NCBI GenBank assembly: GCA_040507985.1
Contig: JBEVNR010000002.1
Coordinates: 71,538-135,537 of the forward strand
DNA length: 64,000 nt
Direction: 5' to 3'
Source of the DNA: Rickettsiales bacterium
GTDB lineage: Bacteria; Pseudomonadota; Alphaproteobacteria; Rickettsiales; UBA6187
The position numbers were made by a program, and so were the translations under genes. Shown piece after piece: positions 49,922-56,099 of this stretch; the stretch's first letter is position 1; each line of letters starts with the position of its first letter. The notes beneath the pieces are model-generated. The model worked only from the letters and a program-made list of their open reading frames with translations. It had not been told where the DNA came from and ran no database searches.

Positions 49922-50141
49922 TCCAAAACAATACTGCGCTTATCTCTTTTTGAATGAACGAAAGAGACATATTTCAACCTGCATGAAAAATATGGCGTCT
50001 AAAAATACGGCGCCGTTTTTTTATCGGAGGGTTTTGCGTTTCGTTAATAAAGCGGTCGCTTTTTCTCCTGTATATTCCGAGATAAGCGCTCCATGATGCC
50101 ACGCGAAGCGCCGCAACCGCGAGCCGTGAAAGGAAGCCGCC

Positions 50142-53100
50142 ATGAAAAGTTCGGTCAGCCTGAAATTGTCGCTCCTCGTCGCCGGCGCCGTGATTATCAC
50201 CGCGCTTGCCGTCAACCACGTTTATACGCGCGCGAATAAAACGATTTTGATCGACGCTGCCGTCAGCGACCTGCGCCACGACGTCGCCGGCTTTCGTTAT
50301 CCGCTCGAAAAAAAAATAGAGGAAACGAAGGAAGATTTGCGTTTCCTGGCCGGAATGCGTCCCATGCGGGCGTGGATGCGCGCGCGCGCGTCGGAAGACG
50401 GCGTCGATCCGGAGACGGGCGTGCCGGAGCAGGAATGGAAGGAGCGCGTGGCCGACGCCCTGCAAGACATGACGCTTACCCGCAAGCGCTATATGCAGGT
50501 GCGTTTCATCGACGCGGACGGGCGCGAGGAAATTCGATTTAATTCGGAAGAAAACGGATCGCTTCGCCGCGTTCCCGAGGCCGAGTTGCAAGACAAAAGC
50601 AAGCGCGACTACGTGCGCGGCGCGCTTGCCATGACGCAGGGACAAATGTTTTATTCCTATCCCAACTTAAATCGCGAAAACGGCGTGCTTGACGTGCCGT
50701 ATCGCCTCACGCTGCGCATTGCTGCGCCGATTTACGGCCCAAGCGGCGTCGGCGGATTGGCGGTGATTAACCTCGATTTCGGCAGGATGCTGGCGGAATT
50801 GCGCGACGAAATGCGCCCCGATCGGCTTTTTTACGTCACAAACGGTCAGGGTGATTACCTATTGCATCCCGATAAATTCGCCCTTTACGCCGGCGACGTC
50901 GGGCATTCTCGCCGCATACAAACCGATTTGCCGGAAATATTGGCGTTTTCGGACGAAGAAACCGCACGCGGCGCCGTCTACGTGCCGAACATTGACGAAG
51001 ACGACCCATCGGCAAACGCCCTAGCCTACGCAAAATATAAGTTCGACCCGAACAACGCCGATAATTTTATCGGCGTCGCCATCCAAAAACCCGTCAAGGC
51101 GATTATGAGTAAGGCCGACGACGTAAAAAGGCGCGGATTTGTTGCCGCCCTCTTCGTCGCTCTGGCCCTGGCGCCTATCTCGGTCGGGGCGCTCTACGCC
51201 TTGCTCAGGCCGCTTCGGCACATTACGCGGGCCATGACGCGCTATCGCGAGGGCGAAAAAAACGTCTCGCTCTCCCGCGAAATACGCGGACGAGACGAAA
51301 TATCCACGCTTGCGCGCGAATTTACGGCGCTCGCCACCGCATGCAACGAAGAGGATTGGATAAAGGAGAAAAAGATTGAGATTTGCGGCGATTTGCTCCA
51401 TTGCCGCGACATGAAGGAATTCGGACAAAAACTCACCTCGCTTCTCGCGCCGGCGGCGGGGGCGCAACTCGCCGTCTTTCACGTGCGCGAAGACGTGTTG
51501 GAGCAAAACGAATCGGACGAGACGCAAACCCATTACGTGCTCGCCGGGTCGTGGGGATTCGATCCGAACGACTATAAGGACAATAAGCTGTTTTCGCGGT
51601 TCGCGCTCGGCGAAGGGCTGGCCGGCGCCTGCGCCGCCGAAGGAAAGATGACGGTCGTGAGCGCGCCGAAAAACTATCTGCATATTGGTTCGGGACTGGG
51701 AGAGGGACTGCCCGCGCGCGTCATACTGTTGCCCATTCCCGTCGCGAAACATCCGATCGCGGTGCTCGAATTGGCGTCGCTGGGAGAATTTACCTCCATG
51801 CGTGCCAATCTGGTGGAACGCATCGCCTTTATTTTAGAGTTGGCTATAAAGCAAGCCTCCGCCGTTGCGCGCGCCAATTATTTGCTTGAACAGGCGCAAC
51901 AGGCCGCCGAAGAATTGCGCGCCCAGCAGGAAGAATTGGAGGTCGCCAACAAGGAAACGGAGGAAAAAAATGACGAATTGCGCGAACAAGCGACGGAACT
52001 GGAGGAAACGCAGCGGCAGGTGCAGGAAAAAATAACGGAACTCAAGCAGGCCGATCGGTATAAGTCGGAATTTCTCGCCAACATGTCGCATGAATTGCGC
52101 ACGCCGCTCAACAGCATGCTGATTTTATCCGACGCATGGCGAAAAAACGACGACGGCAATTTAACCGCCGCGCAGGTGGAAGAGGCCGAAATCGTCTATG
52201 GCGGCGGCATGGAACTGCTTGGCCTCATTAACGACATTCTCGATTTGTCGAAAATCGAGGCGGGGCGGCTCACCGCCGAACCGCTCGCGTTTTCCCTCGA
52301 TCGCTTGACCGAAAAACTCGTCAAGCAATTCTCCCCTATAGCGAAAAGCAAAAATTTAGGGTTTGAAACGTCCGTGGACGCTTCCTTGCCGAAAGAAATG
52401 TTCAGCGACCGCAGGCGTATCGACCAAATTCTTAAAAACCTACTTTCCAATGCCTTTAAGTTCACCCATAAAGGCGAGGTGAGGCTAGACGTGAGGCCGC
52501 AAGGAGAAGGGCGCGTGGCCTTTGCCGTCACCGATACGGGAGTGGGCGTCAAGCGTGAAAAACGTGACGAAATATTCCGTGCCTTCCGGCAGGAAGACGG
52601 CGGCGTCGACCGGCGCTACGGCGGCACCGGGTTGGGGCTGACCATCGCCCGAAAGTTCGCGCGGCTGCTCGGAGGCGACGTGACGGTGGACGGCGAAAAA
52701 GGCAAAGGCAGCGTGTTTACCCTGACGCTTCCCCTTAAATACGAAAATCTTTCGGCCCTCACGGCGGAGAAGGCGGAGATAAAAACAAAAAACGACGTGA
52801 AAACGCCGGTCGTGATGGCGGTGGAATGCGACGGCGCGGCGGTGGCAGCGGTGCGTCTTGCCGCGTCGCGGAGCGGCGCGCGCTTTCTGCACGCCAAAAA
52901 CGCCGCCGATGCGTTCGCGTTGGTTGACGCGCAAAGCAAAGGCGTGGCGGTGCTTCCCGATGCGCTGGATAGCGGCAGCGCGACGGAATGGCTTGAGCAT
53001 ATGGAAAAACACGCGCCGCATGTGTGCGCCGTGATTTACGCCTCGGAAACCCCGAAGGAATCGGACTACGTCGCACTGCGCCGATTTACCGACCATATCG

Positions 53101-53621
53101 TGCTGGCGAACGAAACCTTGTCGGAAGACGTGCTGGCGGATGAAATTCACGGCATTCTCTCCGCGCCCGCGCCCAAACGTTCGCTTATGCCGACGGGCGG
53201 CGTAAAAATGCGGCACGACGCCGGCAAGGCGTTGGAAGGCAGAAAAATTCTGGTGGTGGACGATGATTTGCGCAACAGCTTCGCTATTTGCCGCGCCTTA
53301 AAAAAGCACGGCATGCATACGGTCGTGGCCGATAACGGCGTTCTGGGATTGCAAAAACTTGAGGAACATGCCGATATCGAGCTAATTCTTACCGACATCA
53401 TGATGCCGGAGATGGACGGCTACGCCTTCATTCGCGCGGTGCGCGCCAAACCTGCCCATCGGGCCTTGCCCGTCATTGCGCTCACCGCCTACGCCATGCC
53501 GAACGAACAGGAGAAATGCATGGCCGCCGGCGCCAACGATTATTTGTCGAAGCCCCTCGACGTGGAACGCACCGTCAATCTGCTTCGCGTCTGGTTGTTT
53601 AAACAAGAGGAGGCGGCATGA
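50142..53621 (+). CDS. Hybrid sensor histidine kinase / response regulator (TM-periplasmic sensor-HAMP-GAF-coiled coil-HisKA-HATPase-pseudoREC-REC)
   Basis: The product is 1159 aa. The H-box is FLANMSHELRTPLNS, the N-box is LLSNAFKFT, and the G boxes are DTGVGV and GGTGLGLTIA. The C-terminal receiver reads ILVVDDD...LILTDIMMPEMDG...ALTAYA...DYLSKP. Between the CA and REC domains there is a receiver-sized segment lacking the acidic pocket. Confidence 0.9.
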   Translation: MKSSVSLKLSLLVAGAVIITALAVNHVYTRANKTILIDAAVSDLRHDVAGFRYPLEKKIEETKEDLRFLAGMRPMRAWMRARASEDGVDPETGVPEQEWKERVADALQDMTLTRKRYMQVRFIDADGREEIRFNSEENGSLRRVPEAELQDKSKRDYVRGALAMTQGQMFYSYPNLNRENGVLDVPYRLTLRIAAPIYGPSGVGGLAVINLDFGRMLAELRDEMRPDRLFYVTNGQGDYLLHPDKFALYAGDVGHSRRIQTDLPEILAFSDEETARGAVYVPNIDEDDPSANALAYAKYKFDPNNADNFIGVAIQKPVKAIMSKADDVKRRGFVAALFVALALAPISVGALYALLRPLRHITRAMTRYREGEKNVSLSREIRGRDEISTLAREFTALATACNEEDWIKEKKIEICGDLLHCRDMKEFGQKLTSLLAPAAGAQLAVFHVREDVLEQNESDETQTHYVLAGSWGFDPNDYKDNKLFSRFALGEGLAGACAAEGKMTVVSAPKNYLHIGSGLGEGLPARVILLPIPVAKHPIAVLELASLGEFTSMRANLVERIAFILELAIKQASAVARANYLLEQAQQAAEELRAQQEELEVANKETEEKNDELREQATELEETQRQVQEKITELKQADRYKSEFLANMSHELRTPLNSMLILSDAWRKNDDGNLTAAQVEEAEIVYGGGMELLGLINDILDLSKIEAGRLTAEPLAFSLDRLTEKLVKQFSPIAKSKNLGFETSVDASLPKEMFSDRRRIDQILKNLLSNAFKFTHKGEVRLDVRPQGEGRVAFAVTDTGVGVKREKRDEIFRAFRQEDGGVDRRYGGTGLGLTIARKFARLLGGDVTVDGEKGKGSVFTLTLPLKYENLSALTAEKAEIKTKNDVKTPVVMAVECDGAAVAAVRLAASRSGARFLHAKNAADAFALVDAQSKGVAVLPDALDSGSATEWLEHMEKHAPHVCAVIYASETPKESDYVALRRFTDHIVLANETLSEDVLADEIHGILSAPAPKRSLMPTGGVKMRHDAGKALEGRKILVVDDDLRNSFAICRALKKHGMHTVVADNGVLGLQKLEEHADIELILTDIMMPEMDGYAFIRAVRAKPAHRALPVIALTAYAMPNEQEKCMAAGANDYLSKPLDVERTVNLLRVWLFKQEEAA

Positions 53622-54511
53622 GCGCCGTACAAATCGACGCGGAAGCCATCGAAGCGGACTTGCTGGTCGACGCCATCAAACGGCGTTGGGGATATGATTT
53701 TAGCCATTATTCCCGCTTCTCGCTCATGCGCCGCCTTAAAAAAGCCTGCGCCGACGCCGGTTACGCCCGCCTGAGCGCCGCGATCGAGCCGCTATTGTAC
53801 GACCAGCGTTTCTTCGACGGATTTTTGCGCTATATGTCGATTACCGTGACGGAAATGTTTCGTAACCCGGAATATTACCTTTCGGTGCGCGAGAACGTGC
53901 TGAAAACCTTGCGCAGCTTTCCCTTCATTAAAATATGGCACGCCGGCTGCGCGACGGGAGAAGAAGTCTATTCCATGGCCATTATGCTGCACGAGGCCGG
54001 GCTGCTTCCGAGGGCGCGCATCTACGCCACGGATTTTAACAAGGGCGCCCTCGACGTCGCCAAAAAAGGCATGTATCCCGCCGACCACATGCGCAGGTAC
54101 GCCGACAATTACCGCCGCTCCGGCGGCGCGCGCGACATAAACGATTATTTCTCCGTCGAAAGCGGCTGCGCGACCGTCAAGGCGTTCGTGAAAAAGAACG
54201 TCACGTTCTCATACCATAATCTAGCTGCCGACGGCGCGTTCGGCGAAATGCACGTCATTAGCTGCCGCAACGTATTGATTTATTTCGATAAAACCCTGCA
54301 AGGGCGCGTGCTTACGCTATTTTGCGAAAGCTTGCGCCACGGCGGGTTTCTATGCCTCGGAAATAAGGAAAACGTACATTCCCTTTCGTCTAAACACATG
54401 TTTGAACATATGGATAAAAAACAACGGATTTATAAAAAATGCGCGTCTCCCACCGATATTTTTCAGGAACATGGCCGCGCCGCCGCGCCCCTCGTTCGGG
54501 CGGGAGCGTAA
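53618..54511 (+). CDS. CheR-type protein-glutamate O-methyltransferase
   Basis: The 297-aa product contains TEMFRNPEY and IWHAGCATGEEVYSMAIML (SAM motif), then ATDFN...AKKG.Y and ISCRNVLIYFD. The ATGA overlaps the upstream kinase stop. Confidence 0.85.
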   Translation: MSAVQIDAEAIEADLLVDAIKRRWGYDFSHYSRFSLMRRLKKACADAGYARLSAAIEPLLYDQRFFDGFLRYMSITVTEMFRNPEYYLSVRENVLKTLRSFPFIKIWHAGCATGEEVYSMAIMLHEAGLLPRARIYATDFNKGALDVAKKGMYPADHMRRYADNYRRSGGARDINDYFSVESGCATVKAFVKKNVTFSYHNLAADGAFGEMHVISCRNVLIYFDKTLQGRVLTLFCESLRHGGFLCLGNKENVHSLSSKHMFEHMDKKQRIYKKCASPTDIFQEHGRAAAPLVRAGA

Positions 54512-54514
54512 CCT

Positions 54515-55657
54515 ATGCAAACGGAATATTGCCCGGACGCGGCGCCAATCGCGGAAATTTTAATCGTGGACGATCGGCCGGAAAATCTGTTCGCCACCCG
54601 CCACGCCCTGAAATCGCTCGGCGCGCGCATCCTTACCGCCGAATCCGGCAACGCGGCCCTGTCGCTCATGCTGCGGCATAAATTCGCCGCCGTGTTGCTG
54701 GACGTGCAAATGCCGGAGATGGACGGGTTCGAGGTCGCCGGCGCCATGCGCGCCCACGACGACATGCGCGACATTCCCATTATTTTCGTCACCGCTATCG
54801 ACAAGGAAGAGCGCCACGCCACCATGGCCGGCAAGCTCGGGGCGGTCGATTACGTGTTTAAGCCCATCAACACGGCGATACTCCGCAGCAAGGTGAAGAC
54901 CTACCTTGAAATTTTCTCGCAGAAACAGCAGGTGCTGCGCCTGAACGCCATATTGCGCCAAAGCAACGAAGAGTTGGAGCGTTTCGCCTATATTTGCTCG
55001 CACGACATGCAGGAACCGGTGCGGATGATGTATTCCTACGCAAAAATGGCGCAGGAATCGTTGGGCGATCCATCGGGGGGAGCGGCGGACGCCGGGGAAT
55101 ATCTGGAACACATCGTCGACAACGCCGGCCGCATGCGCGACATGATACGCGACATACTGGCCTTTTCGCGCATTGGCCGCGAAGAGATCCATATGCAAAC
55201 GGTCGATTGCGACGCCGTGATGCGCGAGACGACGGAACGCTTCGCCGGGCTGATCGACGCCTCGCGCGCGCTCATCCTCTGCGGAAAACTGCCGAAGCTT
55301 TACGCCAGCTTGACCCTGGTGCGGATGCTTTTCCAAAACCTCGTCGGCAACGCGCTGAAATTTCAGGCGCGGGGCGTCTCGCCGCGCATCGCGGTGGCGG
55401 CGGCGAAATGTGGCGGCCAATATTGGTTCTTTTTTAGCGATAACGGCGTAGGACTGGACGCCGCCTTCAAGGAAAAAATATTCCGCCCGTTCGCCCGGCT
55501 CCACCGGCGCGACCTCTATCCCGGCACCGGCATCGGACTGTCGGCGTGCCGCAAGTTCTTACGTTTGTGCGGAGGGGAGATCGGCGTCGAATCCTCTCCT
55601 CCCGGCAGCGTGTTTTATTTCACTTTACCCATCACGGAGACGAGCGATGACAAATAA
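54515..55657 (+). CDS. Response-regulator-receiver / histidine kinase fusion (REC-HisKA-HATPase)
   Basis: The 380-aa product has the REC domain ILIVDDRPENL...VLLDVQMPEMDG...FVTA. The H-box is ICSHDMQEPVRMM, of the phytochrome-associated kinase type. It also contains NLVGNALKF, DNGVGLD and GTGIGLSACRK. Confidence 0.85.
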   Translation: MQTEYCPDAAPIAEILIVDDRPENLFATRHALKSLGARILTAESGNAALSLMLRHKFAAVLLDVQMPEMDGFEVAGAMRAHDDMRDIPIIFVTAIDKEERHATMAGKLGAVDYVFKPINTAILRSKVKTYLEIFSQKQQVLRLNAILRQSNEELERFAYICSHDMQEPVRMMYSYAKMAQESLGDPSGGAADAGEYLEHIVDNAGRMRDMIRDILAFSRIGREEIHMQTVDCDAVMRETTERFAGLIDASRALILCGKLPKLYASLTLVRMLFQNLVGNALKFQARGVSPRIAVAAAKCGGQYWFFFSDNGVGLDAAFKEKIFRPFARLHRRDLYPGTGIGLSACRKFLRLCGGEIGVESSPPGSVFYFTLPITETSDDK

Positions 55658-56099
55658 CGCGACACCTAACCCCGCCGGACGCCCTTTCACCCTTCTGCTG
55701 GCCGAAGACAACGTGGGCGACGCGATGATCGTCCGCCACGCGCTAAAATCTTCCGAAGCCGATTACGCGCTGCATATCGTGCATGACGGGCTGGAGGCGC
55801 TGGAGTTTTTGCATAAGCAATACCCCTTCGCCGACGCGCCGACGCCCGACCTTATTCTCATGGACATCAACATGCCGCGCATGGGGGGAAAGGAATGTTT
55901 GCGCGCGATCAAGCAAGACCCTGCCCTTAAGACCCTGCCCGTGGCGATGCTCACCAGCTCCGACGCGCCGGACGACATCCGCGAATGCTACATGGCCGGC
56001 GCCAATTGCTATTTGCTGAAGCAATTCGACGTGGGCGCCTTCCGCGAAATGCTGAAGGACGCCGTAGGCTTCTGGTCGCGCGTGGCACGGGTGGCGTAG
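55647..56099 (+). CDS. Single-domain response regulator (Rcp1-like receiver)
   Basis: The 150-aa product reads LLLAEDNVGDAMIVRHAL...PDLILMDINMPRMGG...VAMLTSS...ANCYLLKQ. It overlaps the upstream gene by 11 nt. Confidence 0.85.
   Translation: MTNNATPNPAGRPFTLLLAEDNVGDAMIVRHALKSSEADYALHIVHDGLEALEFLHKQYPFADAPTPDLILMDINMPRMGGKECLRAIKQDPALKTLPVAMLTSSDAPDDIRECYMAGANCYLLKQFDVGAFREMLKDAVGFWSRVARVA

Follow-up and report, generated by a model that had tools for sequence, protein, structure and literature searches.

The window considered in this study is a stretch of 64,000 nucleotides from a member of the Rickettsiales (GTDB group UBA6187; assembly GCA_040507985.1, contig JBEVNR010000002.1, positions 71,538 to 135,537), and the subject is an operon at 50142-56099 on the + strand in which a membrane hybrid sensor kinase is followed directly by a CheR-type methyltransferase. 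The genome is 2.07 Mb in size and 92% complete. All coordinates are those of the whole stretch, and the four translationally coupled genes of the operon are the following.

50142..53621, + strand: membrane hybrid sensor kinase, RsbK/MAC2-type (MAC, methyl-accepting coiled coil), 1159 amino acids (aa); open reading frame, translation, Pfam, and BLASTP against RsbK
53618..54511, + strand: CheR-type, S-adenosylmethionine (SAM)-dependent glutamate methyltransferase of the MAC/RsbM clade, 297 aa; Pfam, homologues, and tree
54515..55657, + strand: REC-HisKA-HATPase protein (REC, receiver), 380 aa; Pfam, and orthologues at the same cassette position
55647..56099, + strand: stand-alone receiver, 150 aa; Pfam, and kept after the REC-kinase in related loci

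The stop codon of the kinase and the start codon of CheR overlap as ATGA, with a Shine-Dalgarno sequence (GAGGAGG) eight bases 5'; a gap of 3 nt separates CheR from the REC-kinase (TAA-CCT-ATG), and the REC-kinase overlaps the last receiver gene by 11 nt. Reading frames and junctions are exactly as described in a first-pass annotation made from the sequence, and a Pfam scan bears out the domain make-up that it gave the four proteins (HAMP, GAF, HisKA, HATPase, REC, and CheR). The annotation had also remarked that no methyl-accepting chemotaxis protein (MCP), CheA, CheW, or CheB is encoded in the window, and this holds for all 64 kb. The genome carries such genes elsewhere: five MCPs, two CheA/CheW sets, two CheB, and two further CheR, with the MCP, CheA, and CheW genes all on contigs other than that of the window (CheA and CheW on C25 and C53).

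The second gene matches the CheR domain of Pfam at 140 bits and the CheR_N domain weakly, at 25.6 bits against a cut-off of 27. Its closest structural matches are 5FTW (E=6e-30) and 1AF7 (E=4e-18), and on alignment with both the SAM-binding and catalytic motifs are kept (FR82, GEE114-116, D139, N201, R217-N218-V219, and Y222), in agreement with the earlier description of a complete enzyme. More than 7900 relatives are present in the database at about 55-64% identity; the best 120 of these are 55-77% identical and come from many phyla. The closest of them, L092, is a 4-kb contig from a Joint Genome Institute (JGI) metagenome, with a CheR that is 77% identical. Between the window and L092 the ratio of nonsynonymous to synonymous substitution (dN/dS) is 0.12 for CheR (dS 1.36) and 0.18 for the kinase (dS 1.32); by these estimates both genes are under purifying selection since the two lineages split.

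The neighborhoods of these CheR genes are strongly patterned. At least 574 loci were found, and a non-redundant sample of 119 was studied, comprising 80 from named genomes and about 40 more. The gene order of the recurring cassette is hybrid kinase, CheR, a receiver-less CheB of about 190-210 aa, a REC-fused output protein (often REC-HisKA-HATPase), and often a single REC, and it is found in Alphaproteobacteria, Acidobacteriota, Planctomycetota, Chloroflexota, Bacteroidota, Desulfobacterota, Gammaproteobacteria, and Paenibacillus. Three loci (L093, L127, and L128) have the five-gene layout of hybrid kinase, CheR, CheB, REC-kinase, and last gene. Of the first 80 loci, 64 have a kinase bearing the glutamate-rich motif described below in one operon with CheR, and contig ends or frameshifts cut most of the remainder; CheR without an MCP beside it, the arrangement to which the first-pass annotation had drawn attention, is accompanied by such a kinase in the same operon wherever the contig allows, across the 119 loci. 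By gene content, the window operon is the canonical five-gene cassette minus cheB.

The first gene encodes, in order, a first transmembrane helix (TM1), a periplasmic dCache-like sensor, a second transmembrane helix (TM2), HAMP, GAF, a glutamate-rich signaling helix, the HisKA/HATPase core, a pseudo-receiver, and a receiver. The Pfam domains, in residues, are HK_sensor_dom_bact 95-251, HAMP 353-401, GAF 422-569, HisKA 641-708, HATPase 756-866, and REC 1036-1147; the MCP signaling domain (MCPsignal) has no Pfam match in the protein. The features of the kinase on which the argument depends are listed here.

51876..51989, + strand: MAC segment, residues 579-616, NYLLEQAQQAAEELRAQQEELEVANKETEEKNDELREQ; match to the MAC profile
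51909..51935, + strand: intact pairs E590-E591 and E597-E598 at heptad positions b/c; distances from their first Glu to His650 are 60 and 53 residues, both 4 mod 7
51951..51977, + strand: altered pairs K604-E605 and D611-E612; only the second Glu is kept, where the nearest full cassettes have Glu-Glu
52089..52091, + strand: phospho-acceptor His650 in the H-box SHELRTPLN; translation and alignment
52809..53171, + strand: pseudo-receiver; hhalign to the second receiver (REC2) of relatives, with the acceptor Asp and the Lys replaced
53247..53582, + strand: intact C-terminal receiver, with DDD 1040-1042, acceptor D1085, T1114, and K1137; Pfam Response_reg 88.7 bits

The coiled coil that had been quoted in front of the dimerization and histidine phosphotransfer (DHp) domain is present at residues 579-616. 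A MAC profile built in this study from 57 cassette kinases, and distinct from the MAC2 profile hidden Markov model of the MiST database, has the window kinase as its sole significant match in the whole genome (E=4e-6); none of the MCPs of the genome matches it. The family consensus of the coil, which lies between GAF and the H-box, is Q.(A/S)EEL(Q/K).QQEEL(R/K).(A/S/T)NEELEE(K/R), and profile positions Q18, Q19, E20, E21, L22, N26, E27, E28, L29, E30, and E31 are each kept in at least 48 of the 57 sequences. The heptads have Leu at one core position, a small or polar residue (A, Q, N, or T) at the other, and the Glu-Glu pairs at b/c. In the 89 kinases measured, a pair has its first Glu 46, 53, 60, and so on up to 116 residues ahead of the phospho-His; every one of these values is 4 mod 7, and the stretch from the pairs to the His contains no Pro. 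This spacing and the lack of proline place the pairs on a single unbroken helix whose phase relative to the catalytic His is fixed. The motif is largely confined to the kinases linked to CheR, being absent from 59 of 70 other kinases encoded in the same flanks. In many kinases among L006-L128, two blocks of two or three EEL heptads lie two heptads apart.

In the window kinase the four heptads of these pairs read, from the His outward, DEL KET EEL EEL, compared with EEL EEL EEL EEL in L128 and L014 and DEL KEM EEL EEL in the sister L092. Only three [EQ][EQ] pairs are in frame, where the median for the family is five. E591 and E598 are predicted as the likeliest methyl acceptors, and the site at E597-E598 fits A-x-x-E-E-x-x-(small). 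A related stretch occurs in the REC-kinase, where residues 151-163 (54965-55003) include SNEELERF; E152-E153 is 11 residues (7+4) before His163, in the same heptad phase as the pairs of the hybrid kinase, with a weak match to the coil profile (E=1.4). Such a stretch is probably general among HisKA domains of the phytochrome type, but it could also be a second target of CheR.

Downstream of the kinase core, typical members of the family have three Response_reg stretches. Relative to these, the window kinase has lost the first receiver and its second is degenerate; at the stretch of the kinase spacing core and receiver, relatives have about 300 aa. Residues 890-1034 have no Pfam match even at E=1, but align by hhalign to the second of the three receivers (97%, E=5e-11, against the REC2 columns of 63 relatives), with Pro939 at the position of the acceptor Asp and Ala989 at that of the conserved Lys. 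At the level of sequence this comparison confirms the pseudo-receiver that the first-pass annotation had recognized, as a degenerate copy of the second receiver of the family. Nearly all of the 89 cassette kinases finish in (R/K)(V/I)WL(Y/F), one to seven residues from the C-terminus and at the end of the last helix of the receiver; the motif is RVWLFKQEEAA in the window kinase (53556-53621) and VWLIK in RsbK. By analogy with the C-terminal pentapeptide of MCPs, which it loosely resembles, it might be a docking site for CheR/CheB.

Since the genome has five MCPs, two CheA/CheW sets, and two CheB, the CheR of the window could in principle be a third chemotaxis methyltransferase serving some of the MCPs, with its adjacency to the kinase reflecting co-regulation only. 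CheR folds are generic, and the 'RRL' stretch of alpha2 is kept and aligns with that of Salmonella CheR. The phylogeny argues otherwise. In a CheR tree the window sequence falls inside the cassette clade together with RsbM, on a long branch apart from the two other CheRs of the genome, which lie outside that clade and already equal in number the two CheA/CheW sets and the two CheB. With L092 it forms the sister group (support 1.0) of a clade of 18 alphaproteobacterial and acidobacterial sequences, most of which are accompanied by CheB. The distribution of the cassette CheR within the order is patchy: two of 29 genomes have it, the 11 other genomes that belong to the family of the window genome all lack it, and hence it does not belong to the chemotaxis kit of the lineage. 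The clade as a whole is tied to motif-bearing kinases in many phyla, including genomes and loci where no chemotaxis genes are nearby, and according to PMC4951495 the CheR and CheB of the homologous cfcABCDE cluster of Pseudomonas putida take no part in chemotaxis. A chemotaxis assignment is accordingly regarded as very improbable.

CheB is the one gene by which the operon departs from the cassette. Among the 119 loci, CheB directly follows CheR in 83, is nearby or fused in nine, and is lacking in 23, the remaining four being cut by contig ends. A search by tblastn of the junction between CheR and the REC-kinase and of the rest of the window for a cheB remnant gave noise only. A relocated cassette CheB elsewhere in the genome was considered and rejected, both genomic CheBs falling outside the cassette CheB clade. 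L092 has the same CheB-less junction and nearly identical altered Glu pairs, which rules out an assembly artefact and places the loss of cheB before the split of the two lineages; the nearest full cassettes, L128 (same order) and L014, have both cheB and three receivers. Independent losses of cheB are numerous in the CheR tree (the window lineage, L008, L055, L080/L081, L032/L084, the RsbM group of Bacilli, the large L095-L119 group, and others), and CheR and the Glu pairs stay conserved in the CheB-less lineages. An association between the loss of CheB and erosion of Glu pairs was examined and rejected: counting all in-phase pairs up to 14 heptads before the His, the median is five with CheB and five without (p=0.67). 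Narrower counts gave p=0.07 for 56 kinases, and p=0.003 for 90 kinases at two sites chosen post hoc. The erosion of pairs in the window kinase is specific to its lineage. In Bacilli genomes (for example G572, G678, and G596), many CheR matches carry one in-frame TAG in the aligned stretch (298-aa frames), likely where the alignment runs beyond the stop codon of the gene itself.

The known system that most closely resembles the operon is the RsbK-RsbM sigma-B stress module of Bacillus cereus, which was reportedly the subject of earlier work by Chen et al. (Environ Microbiol, 2012). Comparisons with it were made against the kinase and CheR of L129, a sigB cluster of the B. cereus group with rsbV, rsbW, sigB, a ferritin-like gene, and REC-PP2C, and with an 896-aa kinase gene followed by the CheR gene on the other strand. 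The methylated residues of RsbK, presumably E439 and E446, would each fall at the second Glu of an EEL heptad in L129. His505 and Asp827 of the L129 kinase agree with the numbering of PMC4574943 (Chen et al. 2015), which describes RsbK as CHASE3-HAMP-GAF-S-helix-HK-CA-REC and demonstrates with a 14C-SAM assay that RsbM methylates it on the S-helix. In the same work RsbM is called "an orphan methyltransferase", without a cognate esterase; deleting the sole cheB of B. cereus had no effect (data not shown there); methylation is a standing inhibitory mark and not feedback adaptation; inhibition of RsbK by its receiver is proposed to need the methylated helix; and the removal of the methyl mark is left open by the authors. 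That study lists 127 RsbK-like kinases from 10 phyla.

A 660-aa alignment of the window kinase with RsbK, reaching from TM2 to the kinase core, gives 32% identity (BLASTP, E=8e-99); identity in the receiver is 47%, and the window CheR is 42% identical to RsbM (E=2e-82). Both kinases are membrane hybrids with HAMP, GAF, a Glu-rich helix, HisKA/HATPase, and a C-terminal receiver, their EEL heptads share one phase relative to the phospho-His that follows, and in both systems a CheR-type gene comes directly after the kinase with no cognate methylesterase. They differ at the two ends of the pathway: the sensor is CHASE3 in RsbK and dCache-like in the window kinase, RsbK carries one receiver where the window kinase carries a pseudo-receiver and a receiver, and the output of RsbK is the REC-PP2C protein RsbY acting on the sigma-B partner switch, whereas the window has a REC-kinase and a REC and no sigB cluster. 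According to the CheR tree, the window lineage also lost cheB independently of the Bacilli.

The family-wide linkage of CheR and kinase, the heptad-locked Glu-Glu motif, and the homology to RsbK/RsbM together point to the kinase coil, and not an MCP, as the substrate of CheR. The operon is read here, with a probability of about 0.7, as a reduced member of the RsbK/RsbM (MAC2) family whose CheR would methylate the signaling helix of the kinase. Methylation of the window kinase, its acceptor residues, and the route of phosphotransfer are predicted by analogy with the characterized relative. In the proposed mechanism, the membrane kinase would sense a periplasmic signal through the dCache-like domain and pass it through HAMP and GAF to the coiled-coil helix, which would run unbroken into the DHp helix with His650 and present the Glu-Glu pairs on its outer (b,c) face in strict heptad phase with the histidine. 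CheR, made by coupled translation and using SAM, would methyl-esterify glutamates, most likely E591 and E598, neutralizing their charge and altering helix packing. Methylation, probably acting jointly with the C-terminal receiver as it does in RsbK, would then set the output of the kinase, and phosphoryl groups would move first to the REC-kinase and from there to the single receiver.

The last two steps draw on the remaining genes, which Pfam identifies as REC-HisKA-HATPase and REC. The REC-kinase is the conserved fourth gene of the five-gene cassette, with orthologues in the same position in L093, L127, L128, L006, L014, L016, and others. The best solved relative of its core is 8F71, followed by bacteriophytochrome kinase modules, which accords with the phytochrome-type H-box previously ascribed to it. 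The protein probably accepts phosphoryl groups from the hybrid kinase and serves as a kinase of the second tier, and the stand-alone receiver, conserved as the last cassette gene after the REC-kinase in related loci, is the probable output. The hybrid kinase has no histidine phosphotransfer (Hpt) domain; the genome encodes one stand-alone Hpt, which could be an additional participant in the phosphorelay.

Several points weigh against methylation of the kinase by CheR. Identity to RsbK is only 32% and the output module is different; the five MCPs of the genome are possible clients of CheR in principle; and without CheB the scheme has no evident means of removing the mark. With K604-E605 and D611-E612, two of the four ancestral pairs, changed, one receiver lost, and one degenerate, the system could also be drifting away from methylation control. 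In its stronger form, this view holds that the methylation branch has been decaying since cheB was lost, that CheR and the Glu-rich helix are relics, and that the operon is a plain phosphorelay; the deletion of cheB without trace fits it, as do the altered pairs and receivers. Against it, CheR has the low dN/dS given above over a considerable distance (dS ~1.36) from a relative that also lacks CheB, which argues for long selection without that enzyme. The catalytic motifs are all intact, the ATGA coupling and strong Shine-Dalgarno sequence are kept, the CheB-less loci (~23 of 119) have as many Glu pairs as the CheB-bearing ones, and the tested RsbK/RsbM pair functions without CheB. Decay is therefore considered an unlikely account of the operon.

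The opposite possibility is that methylation is reversible, with the kinase demethylated in trans by one of the two genomic CheBs, either the REC-less one at C21:35931-36581 or the REC-CheB at C17:6990-8078. The former is a stand-alone protein with the architecture of a cassette CheB, encoded on the same contig 36 kb upstream of the window. Its surroundings (C21:32725-36581, minus strand, ~36 kb upstream of the window start) comprise the receiver-less CheB (216 aa) and a CheR (271 aa), followed by a membrane-anchored protein of 719 aa with a faint protein-kinase match below the cut-off (E=0.005); by trees, neither this CheB nor this CheR is of cassette type. Both genomic CheBs group with canonical REC-CheB, however, the REC-less one is paired with a non-MAC CheR of its own, and in B. 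cereus the homologous system was unaffected when the sole CheB was deleted. Demethylation in trans is improbable on this evidence. Methylation of the window kinase is probably a standing, write-only mark rather than one arm of a reversible adaptation cycle, the former being the likelier since the dedicated REC-less CheB of the ancestral cassette has been deleted. Of the methylation-based adaptation acting directly on a two-component kinase that the first-pass annotation suggested, the coil as target of CheR is upheld by linkage, motif, and RsbK/RsbM, while the adaptation cycle is not, given the deletion of CheB and the standing mark of RsbK.

The operon can also be placed in the literature on chemosensory systems. 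PMC6943060 (MiST 3.0) and the 2022 preprint bioRxiv 10.1101/2022.05.07.491037 trace the MAC class to 2010 (Wuichet and Zhulin), with CheB/CheR fused to the kinase in MAC1 and encoded alongside it in MAC2, and associate the class with both CheB and CheR; the preprint calls MAC proteins experimentally uncharacterized. The window operon resembles MAC2 in having a kinase with its own methyl-accepting coil beside a CheR encoded as a protein of its own, in a cluster free of MCP, CheA, and CheW, and the same CheR clade and coil motif occur in about 120 loci; it differs in the absence of CheB, as do about a fifth of the sampled loci. The earlier remark that the substrates of such kinase-linked CheR proteins are poorly characterized needs amending, in that the class was defined in 2010 and one member, RsbK, has been tested biochemically. 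Judged by that homology, the mechanism first suggested for the window is an experimentally supported property of a homologous system, the absence of CheB included. The locus adds no new principle; the mechanism was already predicted, in 2010, for the class and has been demonstrated in a single homologue.

Two Pseudomonas clusters are also comparable, by gene order and not by sequence: cfcABCDE of P. putida and, as cited in PMC8175716, the bmsA cluster of P. alkylphenolica (Lee et al. 2016), a second genetic example. Both share with the window the order of hybrid kinase, CheR, (CheB), REC-containing kinase, and last gene, and in both the kinase signals to receivers outside chemotaxis; they differ in keeping cheB, in having CHASE3/GAF kinases, and in their known output, the orphan diguanylate cyclase CfcR. 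The chemoreceptors Tar and Tsr of Escherichia coli and Salmonella are more distant. The CheR fold, the SAM motifs, and the heptad-spaced Glu-Glu pairs on an exposed coil face are common to both, but the window kinase is of HisKA type and is joined covalently to the helix, whereas MCPs use CheA via CheW, and it lacks an MCP signaling domain, CheB, and the C-terminal pentapeptide of NWETF type.

The operon lies among housekeeping genes (gap, pgk, an M23 peptidase gene, and sdhB). The sequence AAAAATACGGCGCCGTTTTTTTT at 50000-50025, 3' of the M23 peptidase gene, resembles a short terminator hairpin, and an AT-rich spacer of ~115 nt separates it from the start of the kinase. Hairpin and spacer suggest that the operon has its own promoter. 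A scan for consensus promoters and terminators gave no promoter-like sites, terminator-like sites at the level of the shuffled control, and no entry for the hairpin at 50000-50025.

Covalent tuning of two-component kinases by chemotaxis-type enzymes is widespread, with thousands of members of this CheR clade in many phyla, while the methyl-accepting kinases have barely been studied, with one biochemical case (B. cereus) and two genetic cases (Pseudomonas). The literature on MAC proteins, from the field of chemotaxis, and that on RsbK/RsbM, from Bacillus stress responses, use different names and seem unconnected; the link is drawn here. A structural rule also emerges from the family, with Glu pairs locked in heptad phase to the phospho-His in 89 of 89 kinases. 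More tentatively, and with the odds rather against it, CheB-less cassettes may be a distinct write-only mode that has evolved repeatedly, and not broken copies. If so, the methyl mark would be set once per molecule and erased only by protein turnover or dilution, it would be read together with the C-terminal receiver as a license for autoinhibition or a gauge of SAM supply, and the window lineage, which has two Glu pairs, a pseudo-receiver, and a single receiver within a genome of 2 Mb, would be an extreme, streamlined case. As a compact natural variant with no CheB, two intact Glu pairs, and a single live receiver, the locus may offer a simple model of the methyl mark.

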